Shown here: in pieces, positions 1,398-60,265 of the stretch
Numbering within the stretch: the stretch's first letter is position 1
Layout of the letters: each line of letters begins with the position of its first letter
Origin: Candidatus Marinacidobacterales bacterium
GTDB lineage: Bacteria; Acidobacteriota; Vicinamibacteria; Marinacidobacterales; DATDRI01
DNA: 64,000 bases
Assembly (NCBI GenBank): GCA_965222425.1
Contig: CBDCTW010000017.1
Span: 267,579 to 331,578, forward strand
Direction of reading: 5' to 3'
The notes under the pieces: model-generated
What the model saw: only the letters and a program-made list of their open reading frames with translations
Told to the model about the DNA's origin: nothing
Database searches by the model: none
Translations under genes and position numbers: made by a program

Positions 1398-2857
1398 GGG
1401 GATGTCCCGCCGGATGTTGAATTTGGGGTAGCTGCGGCTCCTTGGCCGGCCTAAGAATAGGTCTGCCAATAAACCGTCTCCAGAGGGGGACAAGGAGCCA
1501 CCAATGCCTAGGAAATCAAAGAAGCCAGTAAGAAAGCAAACGCACTCGCCTACGGGCAAGGTAGTTGGCCAAGTCGGTCAGATACTGCTACCGATGATAG
1601 CTGGGATCGCGGCCACGAAGGCGGATCTGACGGAATGGGTGTACGAGCAAGGACTGACAGCTCTGCACCTACTGCTCAGAGAGGACGCCGAGGAGATCGC
1701 GGGGCTCAAGGGCAAGCACGAGAAGGAGCGAACTCATAACCACTGGGGGAGCACGAACGGAGAGCTGAGCTTCGGTGGTCGTCGCATCCAAGTGTCGCGA
1801 CCTCGAGTTCGCTCGAAGTCGGGCGCGGAGGCGTCGCTTCCACACTTCGAAGCCTTCCGCGAAGAAGACCCGCTTCCAGAGCGAGTGTTGAATCAGATCT
1901 TGGTGGGCGTATCGACCCGAAATTACGAATCGAGTCTGGACAAACCCGCGGCCAAGTTGAAGTCTCGTGGCACGAGTAAGAGTGCCGCCAGCCGTCACCT
2001 CGTGAGCCAGACGACTAAGAAGCTCGAGGAATACCTGTCTCGGCGGCTAGAGGAGTTCGAGCTTGCGGCACTGATGCTGGATGGCCTTGAGGTGGCCGGA
2101 CAGACCGTCGTCGTAACTCTAGGTATCACAATAGATGGAACGAAGGTGCCCCTGGGTATATGGCTGGGCTCGACGGAGAACTCTCGGGTGTGCACCGCGA
2201 TGTTGCAGGACCTTCTCGAGCGAGGCTTGCGCGTCGATGAGTCGATTCTCTGCGTAGTGGACGGGGGCAAAGGCATCCGCAAGGCACTCGTCGACGTTTT
2301 GGGGGACCTCGCGGTCATCCAAAGGTGCTAGATCCATAAACTCCGGAATCTTCGCTCGTACCTTCCCAAGTCTCGTCACGCCTACGTGCTCCAGACGATG
2401 AAGGAAGCCTACAAGTGCAAGAGTGCCGACAAGGCGCGCAAGCGACTTCAGGCATTGGTGTCGTGGCTCGAGCGAAACGGCTACGACGAAGCTGCCGGAA
2501 GCCTTCGTGAAGGGATGGAAGAAACACTCACGGTCGTGAAGCTCGCGCCGCCCGCCTTACTTCGCCAGTCTCTTGCCACGACGAACGCCATTGAGAATCT
2601 CAACGGAACCATTCGCAGAGTATCGAGAAACGTCAAGCGTTGGAAGAGTCCTTCCATGGTTCGCCGATGGACCGCTCTTGGCGTCGTCACCGCGCAGAAA
2701 AAGTTCCGGCGTATCAAAGGCTATCGCCATATGGGCGCTCTCGTTCACGCGCTTAGAAGCAAACAGAAATCTCTTGACAGCGATGAGTTTGCTGCCTAAG
2801 AGTATTCACAGGTGCCGCCGCTACCCGACCAAATTCAACAGCGGCCGGGACATCCCC
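1398..2857 (+). mobile_element. IS256-family insertion sequence, copy 1 (1460 bp)
   Basis: Ends GGGGATGTCCCGCCGGATGTTGAATTTGGGGTAGC... / ...GGGACATCCCC form roughly 40-bp imperfect inverted repeats. Nearly identical to the elements at 7852-9311 and 12581-14040. No matching direct repeat on its own two flanks. Confidence 0.9.
1504..2799 (+). pseudogene. IS256-family (mutator-type) transposase with in-frame TAG at 2329-2331
   Basis: Same 431-aa protein as copies 2 and 3 (LDG..DGGKGIRKAL..CQIHKLRN..TTNAIENLN motifs) but CAG->TAG at 2329, splitting it into track ORFs 1504-2331 and 2386-2799. Confidence 0.85.
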
Positions 2858-3280
2858 GTGAACCTCGCCATCTTCGGTTGGCTGTCGCAGGTCTATTACG
2901 CCGGCATCCTCTTCGTTCTCCCTAGGCTCCTTCGCACCCAGCTCTACAGCGAGCGCCTTGCCCACGTGAACTGGTGGCTCTAGAATTTGATGGTCGTAGC
3001 GACCCTCATCACCCTTCCTATGGGACACACGCAAGGCCGTGAGTACGCGGAGATGATATGGCCGCTCGATCTGCTGTTCGTTCTCAACATCGTTCTGCTG
3101 GCGATCAACATATGGGGAACCGTTGCACGTCGTCGCGAGCCCAAGATCTACGTGAGCGTCTGGAACTTCATGGCGGCAACGATGGTCATGGTTCCAATCT
3201 ACGCGGTCGGCAACAAGATTTGGGATCCCTCCGGTGCCTACTACGGGAGCAGATTGGCAAACAAAGTGCTCACACGCTAG
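2858..3280 (+). pseudogene. ccoN: cbb3-type cytochrome oxidase subunit I (CcoN-like) internal fragment, with in-frame TAG at 2981-2983 and truncated about 3270
   Basis: VNLAIFGWLSQVYYAGILFV..HVNWWL*NLMVVATLITLPMGHTQGREYAEMIWPLDLLFVLNIVLLAINIWGTVARRREPKIYVSVWNFMAATMVMV resembles CcoN helices (GYTQxKEYAE..FGTIAKRK..IYVANWF). Starts exactly at the IS copy 1 junction and continues the fragment at 9312-9565. Confidence 0.6.
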
Positions 3281-4892: not shown

Positions 4893-5535
4893 AAAGCAGC
4901 CTGCCCGCTGCGACGTGCTGGATTACGATCCTCTTGCTGGTCACACCTAGCCGGGGCGCGCCGCAGGAAGAGCTTCGCGCCACTTGGGAAGCCGACAATC
5001 CGATCCAACCAATCCCCGCGAGTCCTCCATCGCCGACTACGAACGGACCCGGCTGAGCGGAAACTCGCCTTGGGACCGATGGACCGCCGGCGCATCAAAT
5101 ACGCTATCTGATGTCGCGCAGCTTGGTCGGCAAATCTTCTTCGGAAAGGGACGCTGTACACGTTGCCATAGCGCACGCGATTTCACCGACGACGAGTTCC
5201 ATAACGAAGGCATCGGATGGGTTACCGAGGCACAATCCTTCGTCGACGAGGGTCGCTTCGCGGTGAGCAAACTGGGCATCGACCGCGGTGCACTTAAGAC
5301 TCCCACCCTCCGTGACGTCGGCCTCCACCCTCCCTTCATGCACGACGGCTCCATCGCCACACTCCGCGGAGTCGTCGAGCACTACAACAGGGGCGGCAAC
5401 CCCAATCCCTACCTGGATCCCGATATCGAGCCGCTCGACCTGAAAGACTCGGAGCTCGATGGCCTCGTCGCCTTCCTCGAAGCGCTCGCCAGGGAAGGCT
5501 ACCAAGACGAGGCTCCAGCGACGTTCCCTCACTGA
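4889..5535 (+). pseudogene. di-heme cytochrome c peroxidase (CcpA/MauG family), frameshifted and missing most of the N-terminal heme domain
   Basis: ATG 4889 (ATGA overlap with upstream stop) gives signal peptide MKSSLPAATCWITILLLV... then a stop. The 4984 frame carries ..RLSGNSP.. then one CxxCH (CTRCHS), FHNEGIG, LKTPTLRDV, PPFMHDGS, TLRGVVEHYN (C-terminal CCP domain). The first heme motif is absent. Confidence 0.6.
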
Positions 5536-5975: not shown

Positions 5976-7851
5976 GTGAACCACTCTTGCACTCACGGAA
6001 CCATTCCCATCGTCGCACTGCTGCTGGCCGCGTTGGCGCCTAATGTCGTTGCCGAGTCCTACGACCCCGACGTCTACCAAGCGATGAAGTGGCGTCTCAT
6101 CGGCCCCCACCGCGGGGGTCGCGTAACGACCGCGGTCGGAGTCCCTGGACAACCGAACGTCTACTACCAAGGGGCCACCGGCGGAGGCGTTTGGAAAACC
6201 ACCGACGGCGGGCTTGCCTGGAAGAACGTCTCGGACGGGTTCTTCAAGACCGGCTCGGTAGGTGTCGTTGCGGTGGCGCCCTCCGACCCCAACGTTCTCT
6301 ACGTGGGGATGGGTGAGGTATGCATCCGCAGCAACTTCTCCCACGGTGACGGCGTCTATAAATCGACCGATGCCGGCAAGACCTGGACGCATATTGGGCT
6401 TTCTGACACTCGACAGATCGGTCAAATACGCATCCATCCCGAGAACCCTGACCTGGTCTACGTGGCGGCGCTCGGGCACGTTTTCGGACCCAACGAGGAA
6501 CGTGGCGTGTTCCGCTCCAAGGACGGAGGAAAGAATTGGGAGAAAGTCCTTTATATAGATGACAAGACCGGCGCCGTGGATCTCAGCCTAGACGTCACGA
6601 ACCCTGATGTGATCTACGCGGGCACGTGGCAGGTGATCCGACAATCGTGGGGCATCTTGCCGACCGGGCCGGGAAGCGGAATCTACAAAACGACCGACGG
6701 TGGCGATTCCTGGAACGAGCTGGCCAAGGGCCTGCCGGAATCGGATCTCGGAAGGATCGGAGTATCGGTCTCTCCCGTGAATCCCAACCGGGTCTGGGCG
6801 CTCGTCGAGGCCGAGGGCGGAGACCTTCTCCTCTCCGACGACGACGGCGCCAGTTGGACGATGGTCAACGACGACTTCCACCTGCAGCGCCGACCGTACT
6901 ATTACGGCCACATCTATGCCGACACTCAGGAGGTCGACACCGTCTACGTCCTCACCTCCCCTTTCATGAAATCGGTGGACGCCGGAAAGAACTTCGAGCA
7001 AGTCAGCGTCCCCCACGGGGACAACCACGACCTCTGGATCGCACCCGAGGACAATAAGAGAATGATCAACGCCAACGACGGTGGCGCTAACGTGTCCTTC
7101 GACGGTGGTAAGAGCTGGAGCCGCATCGACAACCAACCCACCGCTCAGTTTTATTGGGTGCTCACAGACGATCAGTTCCCTTACCGCGTATACGGAGCGC
7201 AGCAGGACAACACGACCGTTTCCATCACTAGCCGCAGCGACACCTTCGGCATCACGCCCCAACACTGGTTTGCGGTGGCGGGGGGCGAGAGCGGCTATAT
7301 CGCACCCAAGCCGGGCGATCCCGACATCACTTACGGCGGAAGCTACTGGGGTTTCATGACCCGCCACGATAGACGCACCGGCGAGACCCGCTCGATTTCT
7401 CCCTGGCCCGATCGGCCCTTGGGTCGGACTGGAGCCGGTCTCAAGTACCGCTTCAATTGGACCTACCCCATCGTCATCTCACCGCATGATCCCGAAACGA
7501 TTTACGCGGCGGCGAACGTCGTCTTCAAATCGACGAACGAGGGACAGAGCTGGGACGTGATCGGTGCAGATCTGACCCACGACGACAAGCGCAAGCAACA
7601 GCTCGGACGGCTCACCGACTTCTACGGCACCATCACAACGCTCGCCGAGTCGAAACTCCAAAAAGGTCTGATCTGGGTCGGCTCCGACGATGGCCGCGTT
7701 CACGTAACAACCGACGGTGGGAAAAACTGGCAGGACGTCACCCCTCCCCAAATGGAGGCATGGAGCTGGATCAAGATCGTCGAGCCTTCGCCCCATGACG
7801 CGGGATCGGCGTACCTAGCGGTTCATCGTTATCACCTCGACGATTACCGAC
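5976..7851 (+). pseudogene. Sortilin/VPS10-like BNR (Asp-box) repeat protein, N-terminal 625 aa; 3' end cut by IS copy 2
   Basis: GTG 5976 with AAGGAG 6 nt upstream; signal peptide. Eight S/TxDxGxxW repeats (STDAGKTW, SKDGGKNW, TTDGGDSW, SDDDGASW, ...). ORF reads ..VHRYHLDDYR then into IS sequence (RGCPGRC*). Confidence 0.75.
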
Positions 7852-9311
7852 GGGGATGTCCCGGCCGCTGTTGAATTTGGTCGGGTAGCGGCGGCACCTG
7901 TGAATACTCTTAGGCAGCAAACTCATCGCTGTCAAGAGATTTTTGTTTGCTTCTAAGCGCGTGAACGAGAGCGCCCATATGGCGATAGCCTTTGATACGC
8001 CGGAACTTTTTCTGCGCGGTGACGACGCCAAGAGCGGTCCATCGGCGAACCATGGAAGGACTCTTCCAACGCTTGACGTTTCTCGATACTCTGCGAATGG
8101 TTACGTTGAGATTCTCAATGGCGTTCGTCGTGGCAAGAGACTGGCGAAGTAAGGCGGGCGGCGCGAGCTTCACGACCGTGAGTGTTTCTTCCATCCCTTC
8201 ACGAAGGCTTCCGGCAGCTTCGTCGTAGCCGTTTCGCTCGAGCCACGACACCAATGCCTGAAGTCGCTTGCGCGCCTTGTCGGCACTCTTGCACTTGTAG
8301 GCTTCCTTCATCGTCTGGAGCACGTAGGCGTGACGAGACTTGGGAAGGTACGAGCGAAGATTTCGGAGTTTATGGATCTGGCACCTTTGGATGACCGCGA
8401 GGTCCCCCAAAACGTCGACGAGTGCCTTGCGGATGCCTTTGCCTCCGTCCACTACGCAGAGAATCGACTCATCGACGCGCAAGCCTCGCTCGAGAAGGTC
8501 CTGCAACATCGCGGTGCACACCCGAGAGTTCTCCGTCGAGCCCAGCCATATACCCAGGGGCACCTTCGTTCCATCTATTGTGATACCTAAAGTTACGACG
8601 ACGGTCTGTCCGGCCACCTCAAGGCCATCCAGCATCAGTGCCGCAAGCTCGAACTCCTCTAGCCGCCGAGACAGGTATTCCTCGAGCTTCTTAGTCGTCT
8701 GGCTCACGAGGTGACGGCTGGCGGCACTCTTACTCGTGCCACGAGACTTCAACTTGGCCGCGGGTTTGTCCAGACTCGATTCGTAATTTCGGGTCGATAC
8801 GCCCACCAAGATCTGATTCAACACTCGCTCTGGAAGCGGGTCTTCTTCGCGGAAGGCTTCGAAGTGTGGAAGCGACGCCTCCGCGCCCGACTTCGAGCGA
8901 ACTCGAGGTCGCGACACTTGGATGCGACGACCACCGAAGCTCAGCTCTCCGTTCGTGCTCCCCCAGTGGTTATGAGTTCGCTCCTTCTCGTGCTTGCCCT
9001 TGAGCCCCGCGATCTCCTCGGCGTCCTCTCTGAGCAGTAGGTGCAGAGCTGTCAGTCCTTGCTCGTACACCCATTCCGTCAGATCCGCCTTCGTGGCCGC
9101 GATCCCAGCTATCATCGGTAGCAGTATCTGACCGACTTGGCCAACTACCTTGCCCGTAGGCGAGTGCGTTTGCTTTCTTACTGGCTTCTTTGATTTCCTA
9201 GGCATTGGTGGCTCCTTGTCCCCCTCTGGAGACGGTTTATTGGCAGACCTATTCTTAGGCCGGCCAAGGAGCCGCCGCTACCCCAAATTCAACATCCGGC
9301 GGGACATCCCC
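7852..9311 (-). mobile_element. IS256-family insertion sequence, copy 2
   Basis: Same ends as copy 1, inverted orientation. Flanks TTACCGAC (7844-7851) and AGGTTCAC (9312-9319). Confidence 0.9.
7910..9205 (-). CDS. IS256-family transposase, intact (431 aa)
   Basis: Full-length ORF. Differs from copy 3 by a few substitutions (e.g. ENLNVTIRR). Confidence 0.9.
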   Translation of the reverse strand: MPRKSKKPVRKQTHSPTGKVVGQVGQILLPMIAGIAATKADLTEWVYEQGLTALHLLLREDAEEIAGLKGKHEKERTHNHWGSTNGELSFGGRRIQVSRPRVRSKSGAEASLPHFEAFREEDPLPERVLNQILVGVSTRNYESSLDKPAAKLKSRGTSKSAASRHLVSQTTKKLEEYLSRRLEEFELAALMLDGLEVAGQTVVVTLGITIDGTKVPLGIWLGSTENSRVCTAMLQDLLERGLRVDESILCVVDGGKGIRKALVDVLGDLAVIQRCQIHKLRNLRSYLPKSRHAYVLQTMKEAYKCKSADKARKRLQALVSWLERNGYDEAAGSLREGMEETLTVVKLAPPALLRQSLATTNAIENLNVTIRRVSRNVKRWKSPSMVRRWTALGVVTAQKKFRRIKGYRHMGALVHALRSKQKSLDSDEFAA

Positions 9312-12580: not shown

Positions 12581-14040
12581 GGGGATGTCCCGGCCGCTGT
12601 TGAATTTGGTCGGGTAGCGGCGGCACCTGTGAATACTCTTAGGCAGCAAACTCATCGCTGTCAAGAGATTTCTGTTTGCTTCTAAGCGCGTGAACGAGAG
12701 CGCCCATATGGCGATAGCCTTTGATACGCCGGAACTTTTTTTGCGCGGTGACGACGCCAAGAGCGGTCCATCGGCGAACCATGGAAGGACTCTTCCAACG
12801 CTTGACGTTTCTCGATACTCTGCGAATGGTTCCGTTGAGATTTTCAATGGCGTTCGTCGTGGCAAGAGACTGGCGAAGTAAGGCGGGCGGCGCGAGCTTC
12901 CCGACCGTGAGTGTTTCTTCCATCCCTTCACGAAGGCTTCCGGCAGCTTCGTCGTAGCCGTTTCGCTCGAGCCACGACACCAATGCCTGAAGTCGCTTGC
13001 GCGCCTTGTCGGCACTCTTGCACTTGTAGGCTTCCTTCATCGTCTGGAGCACGTAGGCGTGACGAGACTTGGGAAGGTACGAGCGAAGATTTCGGAGTTT
13101 ATGGATCTGGCACCTTTGGATGACCGCGAGGTCCCCCAAAACGTCGACGAGTGCCTTGCGGATGCCTTTGCCTCCGTCCACTACGCAGAGAATCGACTCA
13201 TCGACGCGCAAGCCTCGCTCGAGAAGGTCCTGCAACATCGCGGTGCACACTCGAAAGTTTTCCGTCGAGCCCAGCCATATACCCAGGGGCACCTTCGTTC
13301 CATCTATTGTGATACCTAGAGTTACGACGACGGTCTGTCCGGCCACCTCAAGGCCATCCAGCATCAGTGCCGCAAGCTCGAACTCCTCTAGCCGCCGAGA
13401 CAGGTATTCCTCGAGCTTCTTAGTCGTCTGGCTCACGAGGTAACGGCTGGCGGCACTCTTACTCGTGCCACGAGACTTCAACTTGGCCGCGGGTTTGTCC
13501 AGACTCGATTCGTAATTTCGGGTCGATACCCCCACCAAGATCTGATTCAACACTCGCTCTGGAAGCGGGTCTTCTTCGCGGAAGGCTTCGAAGTGTGGAA
13601 GCGACGCCTCCGCGCCCGACTTCGAGCGAACTCGAGGTCGCGACACTTGGATGCGACGACCACCGAAGCTCAGCTCTCCGTTCGTGCTCCCCCAGTGGTT
13701 ATGAGTTCGCTCCTTCTCGTGCTTGCCCTTGAGCCCCGCGATCTCCTCGGCGTCCTCTCTGAGCAGTAGGTGCAGAGCTGTCAGTCCTTGCTCGTACACC
13801 CATTCCGTCAGATCCGCCTTCGTGGCCGCGATCCCAGCTATCATCGGTAGCAGTATCTGACCGACTTGGCCAACTACCTTGCCCGTAGGCGAGTGCGTTT
13901 GCTTTCTTACTGGCTTCTTTGATTTCCTAGGCATTGGTGGCTCCTTGTCCCCCTCTGGAGACGGTTTATTGGCAGACCTATTCTTAGGCCGGCCAAGGAG
14001 CCGCAGCTACCCCAAATTCAACATCCGGCGGGACATCCCC
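12581..14040 (-). mobile_element. IS256-family insertion sequence, copy 3, with perfect 8-bp TSD CTGCCACA (12573-12580 and 14041-14048)
   Basis: Ends identical to copies 1 and 2. The direct repeat CTGCCACA immediately flanks both ends. Confidence 0.95.
12639..13934 (-). CDS. IS256-family transposase, intact (431 aa)
   Basis: Full-length. A few unique substitutions (SRYLVSQ, STENFRV, LTVGKLAPP). Confidence 0.9.
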   Translation of the reverse strand: MPRKSKKPVRKQTHSPTGKVVGQVGQILLPMIAGIAATKADLTEWVYEQGLTALHLLLREDAEEIAGLKGKHEKERTHNHWGSTNGELSFGGRRIQVSRPRVRSKSGAEASLPHFEAFREEDPLPERVLNQILVGVSTRNYESSLDKPAAKLKSRGTSKSAASRYLVSQTTKKLEEYLSRRLEEFELAALMLDGLEVAGQTVVVTLGITIDGTKVPLGIWLGSTENFRVCTAMLQDLLERGLRVDESILCVVDGGKGIRKALVDVLGDLAVIQRCQIHKLRNLRSYLPKSRHAYVLQTMKEAYKCKSADKARKRLQALVSWLERNGYDEAAGSLREGMEETLTVGKLAPPALLRQSLATTNAIENLNGTIRRVSRNVKRWKSPSMVRRWTALGVVTAQKKFRRIKGYRHMGALVHALRSKQKSLDSDEFAA

Positions 14041-15636
14041 CTGCCACATAACCCCACCGCTTTTCGCGTCGTAGCAGGTCGCGACGCTTTGTATATCGTT
14101 CACCATGTAGAGGTAGTCGCCGCACAGGAGTGGTGAGGGGACGAAAGGAGAGCCCTTGGGGCTCTTCCACACCACGTGAGTGTCGGTCACGTTGCCGCTG
14201 CCGCCGGGTCGAATGGCGAGTGTCGGGCCGGCACGTCCTGAAGAGCAATACACGAGACCGTGGCCGACCACCGGGGTGGGGATGACTTCGTACAGGTTGC
14301 CACCACAGGTCCAGAGCTCTTTGCCGGTGTCGGGATTGTACGCATAGACACGCTTCTGACTGCTCACGATGAGCTCGTCACGATCACCGGTAGCGATCAC
14401 AATGGGCGTTCCCCAACCAACTGTTTTGTCGCGGTGGGTCGACCATTTCACTTTGCCAGTGCTCTTGTCGAATGCGGCCACGAAAGAAGTACCACCCTCG
14501 TGGTCTTGGTAGAGAATGACGCTGTTCTTATAGAGCAGGGGAGAGCCCGCGGCGCCGTGGAAGGCCGGTATCGCGGCGAAGGGCCGATGCCATGCCATCT
14601 TGCCGCTTAGGTCCACCGCCACAAGGCCATGATTTCCTAGATACGCGTAGACGCGCACACCGTCGGTTGTCGGTGTTCCCGAGGCGTGTCCATTTCTCCG
14701 GTGCGGACTCTCCGGCGTGGCCTTGGGTGCAAAGACTTCCCACAACAGCTCCCCGTCGGAGCGGCGGAAACAGAGGACGGAGATCCGTTTGCCGCCATCG
14801 TAAGCGGTGGTCAAGAAGATCTTCCAGTGCTCTACGACTCGAAAGTTAGCGTTCAAGTCGAGCGAGGTGTAGGACTCGACGTCGCCCTGAAAGACCCCGA
14901 CCGACCACCGAAAATCGTCCACCCACCGCACCGCGAAGTCGGCGTCCCACCGATCGGTGATGTAACCGAGCCCGGCCCGGAACGTGTTCTCAAGTGTGTT
15001 CGGAGCAAGTAGTGGCTCGAAACCCGGAGGAATGTCTGCCTGAGGCTGAAAGTCGAACCATGAGTACGAGAACGGATGAGGGTGGCCACCCGCCGGTTTG
15101 AGCGAGCTGTTGAAACCACGAGTGTTCACGTTGTAATCGTAGAGTCCGCTCTGCGTGACGTTGACGCCGGGCGTGAACTCCACGAGCTTGGGAATCTGAC
15201 CGTATGCGGCTTTGCGAGCGATCTGTTCTTTGGAGATGACGGTTATCGCGGCCGGGGCCTCGACGATGCGCTCCGTATGCAAGGAAGCTGAGGTCACGGT
15301 CATGGTCTCGACAAAACCCATCTCCCAGTCGACCGTTTTTTCAACGGTTGCCGTCATGCCAACCGTGACCTCGATGCCCGACTCCGAGTCGGAGTTTTCT
15401 CCTAAGATGAACGTGATCGAGTACGTTCCCACCGGCACGTTGTCGAAGGCGAAGGACCCTCCCTGGTCCGTGATGTCGGCCATCGAGATCTCATTGATGA
15501 CCACGGTGACGCTTCCGACGCCCGTTCCATCCTCACGAGCGACGCGACCGGCGATGCGACCGGTTTCTTGCGCAAACGTCGTCATTGCGAAAAGTGGAAT
15601 GAAGACAAGTACGAAGAGAAAAGGCCGCTTTGTCAT
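14041..15636 (-). pseudogene. chimeric ORF: TonB-dependent receptor N-terminus (signal, CarboxypepD_reg-like domain, plug, last barrel strands) fused in frame to a PQQ-like beta-propeller lacking its first blade; 3' end cut by IS copy 3
   Basis: GRIAGRVAREDGTGVGSVTVVINE.. (CarboxypepD_reg), ..TVTSASLHTERIVEAPAAITVISKEQI..NTRGFNSS (plug), ..YTSLDLNANFRVVEHWKIFLTT (TBDR C-terminal strands), then RISVLCFRRSDGELLWE.. (propeller, aligns from about residue 130 of the paralog). Ends ..YDAKSGGVMWQ at the TSD. Confidence 0.55.
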
Positions 15637-41157: not shown

Positions 41158-42547
41158 GGTGATGTCTTAAGATTCCTGTCAAAGAAAAACGATGTATGGT
41201 TCCCCAAGCTCAAACCCGTCCCCGCCATGGGGACAGAAAAGGAGAACCATACATCATGGGAAAGGTACTACCGAGTCAGCGATTGCTCAAGCAGTTCGAG
41301 GAACAACTGGTATTTGGGGAGATGAATCTCTCGGAGATCGTCCGGTCGGGAGCTCAGATGATGCTTCAATATGCGTTGGAGCGCGAGGTGACGGAGGCGT
41401 TGGGTCGAAACTACTATGAGAACGCTCCGGCAACGACGAAGGAGAAGGGACGACGCAACGGGTATGAGTCGCATCGGGTCCTCACGGGCGAGGGAGCGGT
41501 AACGGTGCAAGTGCCGCAGGTACGAGAAACAGAGAAGGTGTTTCAGTCAAAAATTCTCGACGCCTACGTGAGCCGGACCGAGAAATTCGATGAACTGATC
41601 GCGCGGATGTACGTCCACGGGATGTCGACGCGTGACATTGAGGCGACGTTCGCGGACGTGCTGAGCGGCACGGGTGTCTCGAAGTCGGTGGTGAGCCGGG
41701 TCACACGGTGTCTGTCGGAGGATTTCGAGGCGTTTCGAAAACGGGATCTCTCGAACGAGAAGCTGTTGTATCTCGAGCTCGACGGCACGTACCTGCGCTA
41801 CCACCAAGGAGCGGAGAGGAAAGAGCCCATCCTCGTTGCGACCGGCTATCGCGCTGATGGGACGCGAGTTCTTCTTCATATCGGTGTCGGCAACCGAGAA
41901 TCCTACGAGAACTGGAAGGGGTTCTTGCAGGAGATGGTGGCCCGAGGAATGAGGGAGCCGTTGCTCATCGTGACGGACGGGAATCCTGGAGTGCTCAAAG
42001 CGATCGCAGAGGTCTTCCCTCGAAGCCTCAAGCAACGTTGCCAGAAGCACCGCCTCGAGAACATCCTGGGCAAGGCTCCGAAGGAAGTGCGCGACGAACT
42101 CAAGGCGGCCATCCTTGAGTCGTTCCATGCGAACAGCTACGAGCAAGGGCTGAAGAAGGGTCGGGAGGTGATCGCTCGGTACCGCCAACGATTCCCGAGC
42201 GCGATGAAGTGCATGGAAGAGACCCTCGAAGCGTGTCTTCAGGCGCTACGCCTTCCTGCGGCGGATCACAAAAGGCTTCGCACGTCGAATCTACTTGAGC
42301 GCACGTTCGGAGAGCACAAACGTCGCACAAAGGTCATTCCTCACTTCTTCACCGAGGAGGCCGCGATGAAACTCTCGTTCGCTGTGCTCTTGGCCGTCGC
42401 AAACAAATGGCGCGGCGTGAGGATGGATGTCTTCGCCGCTAGGAAAGTCGAGGAGCTTCGCAACGAGCTTCTCCCGCAAGGCACGTCGGAGGAATCAGCA
42501 GCTTAACCGAGCGCGGGGAACCGTACGGAGATTTGACAGGAAAATTA
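41158..42547 (+). mobile_element. second IS256-family element (1390 bp) nested in the ISKra4-like transposase gene; perfect 8-bp TSD TTCTAGAT
   Basis: 26-bp imperfect TIRs GGTGATGTCTTAAGATTCCTGTCAAA / rc GGTCAAGTCTTAATTTTCCTGTCAAA. TTCTAGAT at 41150-41157 and 42548-42555. Removing element plus one TSD (1398 bp, multiple of 3) restores the host ORF. Confidence 0.85.
41256..42506 (+). CDS. IS256-family (mutator-type) transposase, apparently intact
   Basis: AAGGAG RBS. MSTRDIE, YLELDGTYL, ..RCQKHRLENI.., ..LRTSNLLERTFGEHKRRTKV motifs; divergent from the 3-copy element. Confidence 0.8.
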   Translation: MGKVLPSQRLLKQFEEQLVFGEMNLSEIVRSGAQMMLQYALEREVTEALGRNYYENAPATTKEKGRRNGYESHRVLTGEGAVTVQVPQVRETEKVFQSKILDAYVSRTEKFDELIARMYVHGMSTRDIEATFADVLSGTGVSKSVVSRVTRCLSEDFEAFRKRDLSNEKLLYLELDGTYLRYHQGAERKEPILVATGYRADGTRVLLHIGVGNRESYENWKGFLQEMVARGMREPLLIVTDGNPGVLKAIAEVFPRSLKQRCQKHRLENILGKAPKEVRDELKAAILESFHANSYEQGLKKGREVIARYRQRFPSAMKCMEETLEACLQALRLPAADHKRLRTSNLLERTFGEHKRRTKVIPHFFTEEAAMKLSFAVLLAVANKWRGVRMDVFAARKVEELRNELLPQGTSEESAA

Positions 42548-48367: not shown

Positions 48368-48835
48368 CTAGGCGGCTTTGCGGGTCAGAACCGGCAGCAG
48401 CCTGTCCGCGTCGAGATAGGCGATCTCAAAAGGCGAATCGACGGGTCCTTCGCGAGGTCGTGCTCGAGGAGGAGGGACGGCGGTCCAGTGAGCTGGAGTG
48501 TGACCGAAGTGGATTTCGGCCGGTGTCGCCCCTCCCAAACCCTGGTGCGGTCTCAGGTAGGTGTAGTAGTAAAGCCCGAGATGGAGCCGTTGTTGGAGAT
48601 CGGCCTTGACCAAGGGTTTTAAAGAGCGAAGTTTCAACGCGTCTTTGAGTGTTCTCCAGAGTCTTTCGATGATCGCAATGGAGCCGTACTTACCGATGGC
48701 ACCGAAGCGCTGCCGCGCGCCGAGCCGGCGAAGGGATTTGCGAAATCGCTTCGCCGTGAACTGCTTTCCCTTATCGGAGGCGAAGTGTTGGGGAGGACCG
48801 AACCGGTGGACCGTGGTTCGGAGCAACCGGGTCAT
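48368..48835 (-). pseudogene. IS3-family integrase-core (rve) C-terminal remnant, truncated by the IS481-like element
   Basis: ..[51 protein letters not shown].. from the second catalytic Asp onward. Confidence 0.55.
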
Positions 48836-48915
48836 GTCTCGTGCGGAGGGCGTTTGGTGCAAAAACTCGGCCGGGCACCCGATGCAGCCGCAAGTGGCTT
48901 CCGCTACGATGCTTT

Positions 48916-49989
48916 GCAATGAGCACATTCGTCTCGCCTCAACTCTTCCTGGTCTCCCTCTTGGCGCGCTGGCTGAACCAAGAGCAGCAGAAAATCCTTG
49001 AATTCCTCCAAGAGGAAAACCGCGTTTTGAAAGAGCAGCCCGGTGCGCGGCTCTACTTCAGTGATGACCAACGCCGCCGGCTCGCGGCGAAGGGCAAGGA
49101 GCTTGGCCGGAAACTGCTTGAGGAAGTGGCAACTCTGGTCACTCCGGACACGATCCTTCGATGGCACCGGCAGCTCATCGCGCGGAAATGGACATACCCT
49201 CGCCGTTAAACGGGACGTCCGCCGGTCTCGCGGAAAATAGAAGAGCTGGTCGTTCGCATGGCGACGGCAAATCCGCGCTGGGGTTACGACCGAATCCAAG
49301 GAGCTTTGGCCAACCTCGGGCACACGATCGCTCCGAATACGGTGAAGCGCATCCTGAAAGACCACGCCGTCGAGCCCGCGCCTGTGCGACGGGGGAAAAC
49401 GACGTGGAGCCAGTTCTTGAGTACCCATTGGGACACGCTAGCCGGTGCCGACTTCTTCACCACCGAAATCTGGACTCCCATGGGTCTGGTCACCTTCTAC
49501 GTCTTCTTCGTTATTCAACTGAGGACTCGTCGCGTTCATATCTCGTCGCCGACACCCAACCCGGATCGATTCTTTATGAAGCAAGTGGGGCTCGATATCA
49601 CCGCATTCGACGATAGCTTTATCCAAGGCTACTCGCACCTCATCATCGACCGAGATTCGAAATATACAACGGAGTTCCGGGAGATCCTGCAGGAAAACGA
49701 CGTCGGCGTCGTCCTGATTCCTCCAAAATCTCCGAACTGCAATCCTCACGCGGAGCGATTCGTGCGGTCGATCAAAGAGGAGTGCCTCGACCGCATGATC
49801 TTGTTTAGCCGGAATGCGCTGGAACGCGCTCTCCGCGAATACGGTCGCCATTATCTTCGAGAGCGGAATCACCAAGGCCTCGGAAACAGCCTAATCGAAT
49901 CGATTCCACACGCTTCGGATGGGCCCACCGTCGCATGTAGCGAACGACTCGGTGGGCTCCTGCGATACTACTACCGTTGCGCTGCCTGA
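48916..49989 (+). pseudogene. IS481-like (rve-superfamily) transposase with an in-frame TAA at 49207-49209
   Basis: N-terminal HTH/coiled region ..[44 protein letters not shown] then the same frame continues TGRPPVSRKIEELVVRMATANPRWGYDRIQGAL..HLIIDRDSKYTTEF..NPHAERFVRSIKEECL.. Confidence 0.65.
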
Positions 49990-53086: not shown

Positions 53087-54619
53087 ATGGAGGACGAGAG
53101 TACCCAACAGGCTCAACAGGCCAAACAGGCCCAACATGGACGACGCCAGGGATCCCACCTTCCACCTCTAGCGTCCGCCGAACTACCTTCTTATCCGGGC
53201 AATTTCTGGCGACTGGTTGGGCCGGGAGCGGTCCTGGTTGGCCTATCTATTGGAGCGGGCGAACTGATCATTTGGCCGACCGCGGTCGGGCGCTACGGCG
53301 CGGGCATGATATGGGCCGCCGGTATCGGGATTCTTCTGCAAATGGTCATCAACCTCGAGGTGGCGCGCTACGCGCTGGCCACTGGCGAGACCGCCTACAC
53401 CGGTTACGCTCGATTGTGGCGGGGCTTCGCTATCGTATTTGTGCTCCTCAACCTCACCTCATGGCTCTTACCGGGTTGGGCCAGAAGCTGTGGGGTAGCG
53501 CTTCGTGCGCTGGTGCTCGGCCCTCGCGTCACGCCCCTCGAGGGGGGCCCGGATTGGGTGTGGACCGCTCTTGCCTTCTTCGTTGTGGCGCTCATGCTGT
53601 TCGGTCCCAAGGTGATCTATCGATCGGTGGAGCGATGGACTTCGTTGATGGTCGTCGTTGCGATAGTCGGTTTGGTGAGCCTCGCGGTGCTGCTCGGTAG
53701 AAGTGATCTTTGGCTCGCCGTCGCGAAGGGAGCCGTCAACCTGGGACACAAAGAACCGGCCGTGAGCTACCCCCAGTTCTTTAGCTGGATCGTTTTCGCG
53801 GGCGCCGGAGGGACGGCGAATCTTTTTTTCTGTTTCTACTTACGCGACAAGAACATGGGGATGGGGGGCCGCATTCCGGTCTTGACCAACGTTCTTCGCG
53901 ACCGCGAACCGAGAGAGTCCCTCACCGGCTATCGTTTTCCCGACGATGCGGAGAACGGGAGTCGGTGGCGGCGCTGGTGGCTTCATGCGGTTCGAGAGCA
54001 GGTCCTTTTCTTCTGGTTTCTGAACACCTTAACCATCCTGCTCTTCATCTTTGCTTCGCTGGCCGTGGTCTACCCATTGACACAATCGGGCGTCGTCCAG
54101 TGGGAAGGGTTGCGGGCTTTCTATGAAGGAAAGGAGATCAGCTTTCTCGCGTTGGAGGCGGTGGCTTTGGGAAATGTATTTGCGCCACTCACAACGTTAT
54201 TCCTACTCGTTGCGGTCGCGACGCTCCTGTCCACTCAACTGACTCTGGTGGACGGGGTCGCGCGCAGCTTGTCCGACATCGTCCACACGAATTTCGCCGC
54301 GGCTCGAAAGCGACCCCTCGGTTTCTGGTATGTGGTGGTGGCCGCTGCCTGGATTCTCCTCGGTTGTTTTCTCACTTACGTATTGGAATCCAGTACCCGG
54401 GCTCAGAGCTTCCTGTTCTTGACCGGCTTCTCCGGAGGGATCGCGATGGCGATCTACTGTCCATTGACCCTGGTGATGAACCGGCGTTTCCTTCCGGCGG
54501 CCGCGACGCCCGGACGGTTGATGACGACGCTGATGGCCTTGACCAGCCTTTTCTACATCGGCTGCGCGGTCTACTCTGTGCTGACCCTTCTTCAGGGTTG
54601 GCTAGGCCCTGTCTACTAA
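53087..54619 (+). CDS. polytopic membrane transporter, NRAMP/SLC11-like (putative)
   Basis: About 11-12 TM; N-terminal GPGAVLVGLSIGAGELIIWPT..GAGMIWAAGIGILLQMVINLEVARYALATGE recalls the Nramp first helices but lacks DPGN; assignment weak. Confidence 0.4.
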   Translation: MEDESTQQAQQAKQAQHGRRQGSHLPPLASAELPSYPGNFWRLVGPGAVLVGLSIGAGELIIWPTAVGRYGAGMIWAAGIGILLQMVINLEVARYALATGETAYTGYARLWRGFAIVFVLLNLTSWLLPGWARSCGVALRALVLGPRVTPLEGGPDWVWTALAFFVVALMLFGPKVIYRSVERWTSLMVVVAIVGLVSLAVLLGRSDLWLAVAKGAVNLGHKEPAVSYPQFFSWIVFAGAGGTANLFFCFYLRDKNMGMGGRIPVLTNVLRDREPRESLTGYRFPDDAENGSRWRRWWLHAVREQVLFFWFLNTLTILLFIFASLAVVYPLTQSGVVQWEGLRAFYEGKEISFLALEAVALGNVFAPLTTLFLLVAVATLLSTQLTLVDGVARSLSDIVHTNFAAARKRPLGFWYVVVAAAWILLGCFLTYVLESSTRAQSFLFLTGFSGGIAMAIYCPLTLVMNRRFLPAAATPGRLMTTLMALTSLFYIGCAVYSVLTLLQGWLGPVY

Positions 54620-58404: not shown

Positions 58405-58474
58405 GCGTAGGACCACTGTCAATTGAATTATGATGTGGGGCCGAACTAGAGAGGTTCTTTAAGGAGGAGATGCA

Positions 58475-59089
58475 ATGAGTGAATCCGGAAACGGGCTACG
58501 AGTTGGACATCCGGTGCCTAATTTCGAGCTCGCGACATACGATCCAGTAAAGGAAGACTTCGGGACGATCAGCCTCGATGGTCTGAAGTCACAGAATAAA
58601 TGGACTATCCTGTTCTTCTATCCCGCCGACTTCACATTCGTCTGAGCGACTGAATTTGCTGCTCTGGCAGAGCAGTACGATCGTTTCAAGAAAATGGGTG
58701 CGGAGATCGTCACCGTTAGCTGTGACACGCAGTTCGTGCACCTCGCGTGGAGACGGCACGAGAAAGAATTGGCGAACGTCAAGTATCCGATGGGCGCCGA
58801 CCCGACCGGCAACGTGGGCAGGATGTTCGGCGTTTACGAAGAAGGAGCGGGGCTGGCTCTGCGAGGGACATTCATCATCAACCCTGAGGGAACGCTTCTG
58901 AACTCAGAGGTGAATTTTTTCAACATGGGGCGAAACATCGACGAGCTGATGAGGAAGTTCAAGGCCAATCTCTATCTGGCGAAGAAACAGGCAGAGGCCT
59001 GCCCTGCCAAGTGGAAGGACGAAGGAGATCAAACCTTGACTCCGGGTCCCGAGCTGGTAGGCCGGGTCCACGAGGCCCTGCAGAAATAA
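58475..59089 (+). CDS. 2-Cys peroxiredoxin (AhpC/Prx1 type) with in-frame TGA at the peroxidatic-Cys codon (58643-58645): candidate selenoprotein
   Basis: AAGGAGG RBS. ..WTILFFYPADFTFV[TGA]ATEFAALAEQYDRFKKMGAEIVTVSCDTQFVHLAW..; frame continuous across TGA. Resolving Cys in EACPAKW. The ORF track starts at internal Met 58694. Confidence 0.65.
58657..58677 (+). promoter_or_regulatory. SECIS-like hairpin 11 nt downstream of the in-frame UGA
   Basis: GCUGCUCU / AGAGCAGU-type stem (8 bp incl. one G-U) 58657-58664 / 58670-58677, apical loop UGGCA. Confidence 0.45.
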
Positions 59090-59096
59090 GCACTTG

Positions 59097-59136
59097 GGGG
59101 CAGGTGATTTTTCTTAATTACCTGTCCCTACTTTTT
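59097..59136 (+). terminator. possible intrinsic terminator after the peroxiredoxin gene
   Basis: 9-bp stem GGGGCAGGT / ACCTGTCCC (one G-U), 14-nt loop, then UACUUUUU. Confidence 0.35.
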
Positions 59137-59137
59137 C

Positions 59138-60265
59138 CTAAGCAGGTTGAGGCGTCTTGGAGCGCAGGGAAAGAAGCTTTTCCGAGAGATCCCAGCCGCG
59201 GCTCGACTCCGAGAACGGACAAACCTCGAGACATATCGCACACCCGTAATTGTCGCTGAAGTACGGCACGCAGCGATCGAAGTCCACGTACCATTTCTGT
59301 GTGCCGCGCACCCATTGCTTTTCGTCCGCGATGGCGTCCGGTGGGCATTCGACCGTGCAGACGCGACACCGGGTGCAAAGATCCTCGACTCCGATGTCGA
59401 CGGGTTGATCCACCGCCATCGGTAGGTCGGTGACGACCGACGTCAGTCGAAAATTAGAGCCGTACTCTTTCGATATCAGTGAGCCGTGTTTGCCCAGCTC
59501 GCCCAGGCCCGCGGCGATGGCAATGGGGATGTGGAGGTACTCGCCGCTGCTGTTGATGGGCAGTCCCTCGGCCGGCCATCCCATCGAGCGAATGTGGCGG
59601 GTCAGGTCCACGGTGAGCTTGGAGCAACGATGGTAGACCCGCAAGACCTCGCGCCCCGACTTGAGGCGCGGTGCTTGTAACATGATCTCGCGATCCATCG
59701 GGAAGCCCAGCGCGATGGCGTAGCGATAGGGGGAGCTGGCTCCCTCGATCAGGAACTGATCGCGCATCTTGCAGATCCCGACGATACCCGCGCCCAACTC
59801 TTTCGCCTTCGCCTTGATCTCGGCGGCCATGGCCGCGGGATCGGTGACCACTCGGCGCTGGCTGGCTATCTTGCCTTGTGGACGAAAGGCCAACCACATG
59901 CTCTTGAGCAGACGCGGCAACATCCATCCCGGATACGTGTAACGAAAGTGGGTTTGCATCTCGTCCCACGGCAGCGGGCCGGTTTTGAAATTTGAGTGGA
60001 AGACGTAGCTCGCTCGGCGTGATGAGGTTTCCCCCAGGCCGTTGATCTTGTTCCCCGAAGGCGGCGCATCACGATACACGAAAACGGACTCGGCGGGAGG
60101 CCGTGACTTCAGTTTCACTGTATTGACCTCATATGTAGTACTTCTCTCCTCTCCATTTGAGGTAGCGGCGACGCATTCGAATCGCGGTGCCGATGGTGAG
60201 GTGCCGCACCGAGTACGCGAGAGCAGGGGGGAGAAAGTGCCAGAGTCGGATCCAGAAGGAGTCAC
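59138..60265 (-). CDS. QueG/RdhA-superfamily iron-sulfur protein (epoxyqueuosine reductase- or reductive-dehalogenase-like)
   Basis: ..IGKHGSLISKEYGSNFRLTSVVTDLPM..CTRCRVCTVECPPDAI..CAICLEVCPF: two 4Fe-4S ferredoxin motifs after a QueG/RdhA-like core. Confidence 0.5.
   Translation of the reverse strand: MTPSGSDSGTFSPLLSRTRCGTSPSAPRFECVAATSNGEERSTTYEVNTVKLKSRPPAESVFVYRDAPPSGNKINGLGETSSRRASYVFHSNFKTGPLPWDEMQTHFRYTYPGWMLPRLLKSMWLAFRPQGKIASQRRVVTDPAAMAAEIKAKAKELGAGIVGICKMRDQFLIEGASSPYRYAIALGFPMDREIMLQAPRLKSGREVLRVYHRCSKLTVDLTRHIRSMGWPAEGLPINSSGEYLHIPIAIAAGLGELGKHGSLISKEYGSNFRLTSVVTDLPMAVDQPVDIGVEDLCTRCRVCTVECPPDAIADEKQWVRGTQKWYVDFDRCVPYFSDNYGCAICLEVCPFSESSRGWDLSEKLLSLRSKTPQPA

Follow-up and report, generated by a model that had tools for sequence, protein, structure and literature searches.

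A peroxiredoxin gene in the window (the whole 64-kb stretch of DNA analysed here) most probably encodes a typical 2-Cys enzyme of the AhpC/Prx1 type that uses selenocysteine (Sec) as its peroxidatic residue. We assign this reading a probability of about 0.9. The first-pass annotation had proposed a candidate selenocysteine peroxiredoxin, and the proposal holds: TGA at the Sec position is found in at least 240 sequences, the reading frame is unbroken before and after it, the SECIS hairpin that follows shows covariation, and the homologues with cysteine at this position are mostly devoid of the hairpin.

The features of the gene are listed in Table 1. The frame is open from the ATG at 58475 to the TAA, of which 59089 is the last base, and its sole interruption is the TGA at codon 57. 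The translated product reads ...ILFFYPADFTFV-TGA-ATEFAALAEQY...EACPAKW... Several statements made earlier from the sequence were borne out: a strong AAGGAGG ribosome-binding site stands ahead of the start codon, the TGA lies within the conserved active-site motif (the local peptide is FTFV-TGA-ATEF) at the position of the peroxidatic Cys of the homologues, and the resolving Cys of EACPAKW is retained. The expected mis-calling of the gene was also observed. The standard ORF listing gives only fragments, a C-terminal piece of 131 aa (58694-59089), which had been mentioned before, and also an N-terminal piece of 56 aa (58475-58645).

Table 1. Features of the predicted selenocysteine peroxiredoxin gene and their coordinates in the window.
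Feature	Position	Strand	Remarks
Shine-Dalgarno sequence AAGGAGG	58461-58467	+	7 nt 5' of ATG 58475; read directly from sequence
Peroxiredoxin gene	58475-59089	+	204 codons and TAA 59087-59089; AhpC/Prx1-type, predicted Sec at codon 57; from translation
Thr54 codon, PxxxTxxU active-site motif	58634-58636	+	Invariant column in alignment A1
In-frame TGA, predicted Sec codon 57 (peroxidatic residue)	58643-58645	+	Aligns with peroxidatic Cys of homologues
Predicted SECIS hairpin core	58658-58676	+	Stem 58658-58664/58670-58676, closing pair U58665-A58669, apical loop GGC 58666-58668; RNAalifold consensus
Arg130 codon, conserved active-site arginine (LRGTF)	58862-58864	+	Invariant column in alignment A1
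Cys176 codon, resolving cysteine in EACPAKW	59000-59002	+	Invariant in alignment A1; lines up with EVCPAKW in Salmonella AhpC
Terminator-like hairpin followed by CTTTTTCC	59095-59130	+	6 nt past the stop codon; 15-pair stem and T-run; pattern match only

The family of the protein was established with Cys substituted at codon 57. Residues 10-141 match the Pfam thioredoxin-fold domain PF00578 (AhpC-TSA) with E = 3.1e-36, and the best solved structures are those of Salmonella and E. coli AhpC (PDB 1yf1, 1yep, 4o5r and others; E = 2e-45). The residues P50 and T54, the residue-57 motif PxxxTxxC/U, R130 and C176 are all in place, P50, T54, R130 and C176 being invariant in alignment A1. C176 belongs to a C-terminal motif of the VCPxxW type. 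We take Arg130 to have its general catalytic role known in peroxiredoxins, and the Cys of EVCPAKW in Salmonella AhpC is the resolving Cys165. Since the AhpC-TSA match, the AhpC structures, and the active-site and E[VA]CPAKW motifs all align, the protein is classified from its sequence as AhpC/Prx1-type, typical 2-Cys. The PxxxTxxU form of the active-site motif has been described in PMC13188914.

The assignment does not extend to narrower families. The protein scored 194.7 bits with the AhpC equivalog model TIGR03137, below the curated cut-off of 272, and 184 bits with the NCBIfam PrxU model NF040737, below the curated cut-off of 270. The AhpC score is slightly higher than the PrxU one, and the label "PrxU type" used in the first-pass annotation had to be dropped. 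Full-length database homologues have up to 74% identity and nearly all of them read FTFVCATEF at the active site; hence the TGA falls exactly on the peroxidatic Cys. Ala replaces the near-universal Pro after the peroxidatic residue throughout the clade, in both Sec and Cys forms (U/C-A-T-E as against C-P-T-E). In the window this is codon 58646-58648, which is located outside the hairpin, and the replacement is therefore a property of the protein.

Two public collections were scanned with a degenerate DNA pattern encoding D-F-T-F-V-TGA-A-T-E-F-A. At least 120 species-representative genomes carry the motif, as do at least 120 metagenome contigs; by our own estimate, about 5e-4 matches would be expected by chance in the genome collection (596 Gb). 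Among the matches listed, the genomes represent about ten phyla and are essentially all metagenome-assembled (MAGs). The groups seen among these matches are Nitrospirota, Acidobacteriota, Planctomycetota, Methylomirabilota/Rokubacteria, Desulfobacterota including Geobacteraceae, Myxococcota, Eisenbacteria, Krumholzibacteriia, Binatia, Armatimonadota and Verrucomicrobiia. With such counts in genomes and contigs, this kind of Sec peroxiredoxin is not rare in environmental genomes, contrary to the earlier description. Two separate contigs of one Vicinamibacteria MAG, STL-ACI20 (L021 and L098), each carry a Sec-form gene, so some genomes have two Sec-form copies.

In nearly all of the at least 240 loci the frame remains open for 145-152 codons past the TGA, the window gene having 147. 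In tblastn searches residues 1-204 aligned across the TGA with up to 80% identity among the loci listed. The start of the protein, like both of its halves, is matched in the alignments with full-length homologues. The best Sec relative among these matches (80%), encoded in a Marinacidobacterales MAG (L017), is closer to the window protein than any Cys homologue. Full-length Sec homologues appear to be absent from the protein collection, in which the best full-length protein reaches 74% identity, as compared with up to 80% for the Sec loci. At the nucleotide level, the identity to the peroxiredoxin gene was at most 78% in every locus retrieved. No synteny shared between the window and the retrieved loci was found.

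These data bear on the possibility that the gene is a pseudogene, its TGA being due to a nonsense mutation or to an error of sequencing in this genome alone. Standard ORF calling does split the gene in two, and a real nonsense case exists in the same window, where an IS256-family copy has CAG>TAG at 2329. However, no fewer than 240 independent sequences, spread over about ten phyla, have TGA at the same codon within an intact frame, both halves of the protein are conserved (up to 80% identity among the loci listed), and the window retains an exact consensus SECIS, in its second most common variant. Because the TGA is conserved, the frame is open beyond it and the full-length alignment runs across it, a private mutation or error can be considered excluded, and we regard a pseudogene of this origin as highly improbable.

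The hairpin was originally described as an 8-bp stem with a 5-nt UGGCA loop at 58657-58677. Such a structure, UGCUGCUC-UGGCA-GAGCAGUA, does form and starts 11 nt past the TGA, but only the part 58658-58676 is conserved, and an extra U-A pair predicted by RNAfold reduces the loop to three nucleotides, GGC. The pair 58657-58677 forms in the window sequence outside this conserved core; the family-conserved stem starts at 12 nt. The energy calculated by RNAfold is -11.3 kcal/mol for the hairpin alone and -16.4 kcal/mol within a longer fold. The fold of this single sequence is no better than expected by chance (z = -1.59; 17 of 200 shuffles fold equally well). Hence the significance of the hairpin rests on comparative data.

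The codon-choice entropy was calculated per codon for 225 distinct Sec genes, using only sequences that carry the majority amino acid. From position +5 to +10 after the TGA the codons are GCU (0.90), GCU (0.97), CUG (1.00), GCA (0.97), GAG (1.00) and CAG (1.00). The entropy H at these positions is 0-0.6 bit versus 1.5-1.8 bits for the Ala, Leu, Thr and Gly codons in other parts of these genes, where GCU is the rarest codon for Ala. The fixation of these codons is not an effect of ascertainment, given that the pattern used for the search extends no further than the second base of codon +5.

Covariation was analysed in an alignment of 150 distinct 54-nt segments, comprising all 36 stem variants and 114 segments that have the consensus stem. 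Across the eight pairs of the stem, 99.2% of cells are paired. Compensatory two-sided changes were observed in columns 18-32 (U-A to C-G or G-U, 17 sequences), 20-30 (C-G to A-U, 8 sequences) and 21-29 (U-A to C-G, 11 sequences). Several of the compensatory changes replace an amino acid (A by D, E by G or D, Q by R or L); therefore the pairing is kept at the expense of the protein. RNAalifold recovers the same hairpin without guidance, and the hairpin of the window matches the consensus SECIS exactly, in the form that is the second most common variant. When the 3' partners were slid by 1-3 columns, pairing over the whole structure tested, with its two helices taken together, dropped to 28-44%. 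A conserved lower stem including the UGA (columns 4-10 with 40-47) was also considered; it is paired in only 56% of cells and was rejected.

The published model of bacterial SECIS elements (bSECIS; PMC13188914) has an apical loop of 3-9 nt, an upper stem of 4-16 bp, minimum free energy of at most -7.5 kcal/mol and 16-37 nt between the UGA and the loop. A G is present within the first two loop positions, mostly in the arrangement N1-G-[G/U]-N-N2 with N1 and N2 paired. The window hairpin, with its U-GGC-A loop, a stem of 7-8 bp, spacing of 19 nt and the energy of -11.3 kcal/mol, agrees with the model in every respect. In the Rfam search, no SECIS or other family was found at the gathering thresholds in the whole window, and around the gene at E <= 10 only chance matches to miRNAs and snoRNAs were obtained. 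Given the near-zero synonymous variation, the covariation and the agreement with the published bSECIS criteria, the presence of a SECIS-like hairpin 3' of the TGA is upheld. Judged from these comparative data, the hairpin 58658-58676 is a bacterial SECIS.

If TGA were reassigned in this organism, as in genetic code 4 or 25, codon 57 would encode Trp or Gly. One database homologue does have W at the Sec position: it is a full-length protein from JGI sample 3300075153 (P0002) with FTFVWATEF. This Trp could be encoded by TGG, or by TGA to which the annotation pipeline applied another code. In the window, however, TGA is the stop codon of 14 of the 37 Pfam-supported genes, and these 37 genes contain 239 TGG codons against a single in-frame TGA, codon 57 itself. 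Moreover, an enzyme with Trp or Gly as its peroxidatic residue would be catalytically inactive. As TGA stops 14 of the 37 genes and codon 57 is their only in-frame TGA, code reassignment is excluded, its probability being negligible. Sec is retained as the predicted residue 57.

Eight Cys-form genes (TGC or TGT at codon 57) were compared with the Sec genes. Seven of them have varied codons in the hairpin stretch and no equivalent hairpin. A Cys-form gene with TGT (P0001, L242 42-659), neighboured by desulfoferrodoxin and hemerythrin genes, has the near-intact hairpin GCUGCUU-UGGCA-GAGCAGU, which suggests a recent Sec-to-Cys conversion with a relic hairpin. In a gene from a JGI metagenome (P0025, L241 1501-2097) the TGA is replaced by CGA (Arg) at 1648-1650; its hairpin is intact with the loop UGUCA and its N-terminal region is scrambled. 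These features suggest a copy in decay or an error of assembly. One MAG contig (L010) contains on its minus strand both a Cys gene (2604-3212) and the active-site motif of a Sec gene (2342-2373), the two being tandem paralogues on the same strand.

On a rough neighbor-joining tree of 205 Sec and 111 Cys forms, built from a short protein and without support values, the two states are interleaved, with at least 22 changes by parsimony. This is in agreement with the published dynamic exchange between Sec and Cys. A further, tentative proposal is that the AhpC-like clade with U/C-ATEF is a distinct lineage that passes no NCBIfam equivalog model and is routinely mis-called, and that its coding of A-A-L-A-E-Q may explain the frequent switching between Cys and Sec. 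We hold it as a possibility that falls well short of the main reading. The SECIS core is a nearly invariant 19-nt sequence, GCUGCUCUGGCAGAGCAGY, across about ten phyla among the matches listed. The conserved peptide A-A-L-A-E-Q can encode the hairpin by synonymous choices alone, and switching could be frequent for this reason. The cases of switching are the changes on the rough tree (at least 22), the relic hairpin in one Cys form and the tandem Sec/Cys paralogues in one MAG. If the proposal is true, this clade would be a natural model of a SECIS arising inside a pre-existing coding sequence.

The genes for Sec incorporation were searched for in the same data. ARAGORN found no tRNA in the 64-kb window and no tRNA-Sec in 248 loci. 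No SelA, SelB or SelD domains were detected by the Pfam scan of 47 window ORFs, and tblastn with the E. coli SelA, SelB and SelD produced no match in the window or in any retrieved locus. These absences carry little weight, because 64 kb is only about 1% of a typical genome, but because of them a small probability remains that the genome has lost the trait and retains the gene as a relic. With the Sec machinery lacking or lost, UGA57 of a Sec-type gene would terminate translation or be read through at a low level by near-cognate Trp or Cys tRNA, and the gene would be a relic or weakly functional. Apart from the four genes missing from the window, such decay has parallels in the relative that has CGA at the Sec codon and a disrupted N-terminus, and in the frequent interconversion of Sec and Cys forms, including the relic hairpin. 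On the other hand, the ORF, the ribosome-binding site, the SECIS and the terminator of the window gene are all intact, the SECIS is identical to the consensus, and four genes missing from so small a part of the genome say little. We consider this alternative unlikely.

The preferred reading, a functional Sec peroxiredoxin, implies the following sequence of events. UGA57 would be read as Sec and not as a stop during translation, by SelB-dependent decoding in this organism. The SECIS at 58658-76 is expected to bind SelB with GTP and Sec-tRNA(Sec), and the SelB complex would be delivered to the ribosome when the UGA is in the A site. The selenolate of U57, presumably activated by T54 and R130, would attack peroxide and form selenenic acid. 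Cys176 of the partner subunit would then resolve the selenenic acid to a selenenylsulfide, and a thioredoxin-like reductant would recycle the enzyme.

The peroxiredoxin gene is located after ilvB-ilvN-ilvC and is convergent with a ferredoxin-domain gene. The product of this convergent gene (59138-60265, minus strand) has 375 aa, and its Pfam match, to a 4Fe-4S dicluster domain, covers only the last 80 or so residues. Between ilvD and ilvB there is a 510-aa ORF (53087-54619, plus strand) with no Pfam match. The Pfam scan revealed no AhpF gene near the peroxiredoxin gene in the window. In about 240 related loci, the recurrent neighbours encode superoxide reductase (17 loci), rubrerythrin (17), a Fur/PerR-type regulator (16), an ArsP-type permease (15), a CsoR-type repressor (13) and a flavodiiron protein (10). 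None of the families is a majority neighbour, the best ones occurring in 10-17 of the approximately 240 loci, and no conserved reductase partner emerged from this set. Superoxide reductase, rubrerythrin, Fur/PerR-type regulators and flavodiiron proteins are encoded by oxidative-stress genes typical of anaerobes and microaerophiles. The recurrent neighbours fit a role in oxidative-stress defence, as far as gene context can indicate it.

The rest of the window contains a number of mobile elements. An insertion sequence of the IS256/Mutator family is present in three 1.46-kb copies (1393-2859, 7850-9311 and 12581-14045) that are more than 99% identical, the first one being inverted relative to the other two. 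In the copy at 1393-2859, the CAG>TAG nonsense mutation at 2329 cuts the transposase to 275 aa. A fourth, different transposase of the Mutator family is encoded at 41196-42506, and a fragment of an rve integrase, at 48368-48928. The 183-aa ORF at 4984-5535 (plus strand) may be a truncated or disrupted gene, since its match to the di-haem cytochrome c peroxidase domain is confined to the first half of the domain (positions 4-76 of 149 in the CCP_MauG profile). Pairs of ORFs split by TGA were inspected by eye for other selenoprotein candidates in the window. All of them turned out to be frames on the antisense strand, neighbouring genes that share a frame, or IS elements.

For annotation, it follows that one selenoprotein of 204 residues should be called in place of the fragments of 56 and 131 aa, and the same applies to the at least 240 homologues in MAGs and metagenomes; genes of this widespread kind are routinely split by gene callers. 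The gene is a marker of probable selenocysteine use by its host, which would have a selenium-dependent peroxide defence. The practical value of the finding lies mainly in the annotation and in this marker. The comparative set is also an unusually clean case in which an RNA structure inside a coding region restricts synonymous sites and even amino acids.

The best-known point of comparison for the hairpin is the SECIS of E. coli fdhF, whose minimal upper stem-loop is situated about 11 nt past the UGA, with a G in the apical loop that is essential. Likewise, the window hairpin lies inside the coding sequence just 3' of the UGA, 11 nt after it. Its sequence is unrelated to that of fdhF: the loop is (U)GGC(A) instead of GGUC, and the bulged U is missing. 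A lower stem that includes the UGA is not conserved in the window family.

Among proteins, Salmonella and E. coli AhpC share with the window protein an active site of the FTFVC/U form and, at the C-terminus, the resolving-Cys motif E[VA]CPAKW. They differ from it in having Cys for Sec and CPTE for UATE, and the window protein is below the TIGR03137 cut-off. Unlike in AhpC systems, no AhpF gene adjoins the window gene, and AhpF is not a recurrent neighbour in the related loci. PrxU from Eubacterium acidaminophilum was the first Sec peroxiredoxin shown experimentally, according to the account of Sohling et al. 2001 given in PMC13188914. The window protein resembles PrxU in being a peroxiredoxin with predicted Sec at the peroxidatic position, but its NF040737 score of 184 bits versus 270 shows that it is not a PrxU equivalog.

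The closest known system is the Sec-Prx family (TxxU, PF00578), an established and abundant family of bacterial selenoproteins in the selenoproteome surveys of Zhang and Gladyshev. The 2006 survey reported 12 Sec-Prx genes and five Cys-to-Sec events, in organisms that include Geobacter metallireducens, Anaeromyxobacter, Syntrophus and Syntrophobacter. The reference Sec-Prx in the review literature is WP_011365628.1. The window gene and this family have in common the AhpC-TSA domain, Sec in T-x-x-U (predicted in the window gene), and a UGA followed directly by a bSECIS with G in a small apical loop. The window clade is carried by Geobacteraceae MAGs. There is no essential difference between the window gene and this family, the window clade having Ala and not Pro after the catalytic residue. 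The current understanding of selenoproteins is unchanged by the window gene, which is a further member of the established Sec-Prx family.
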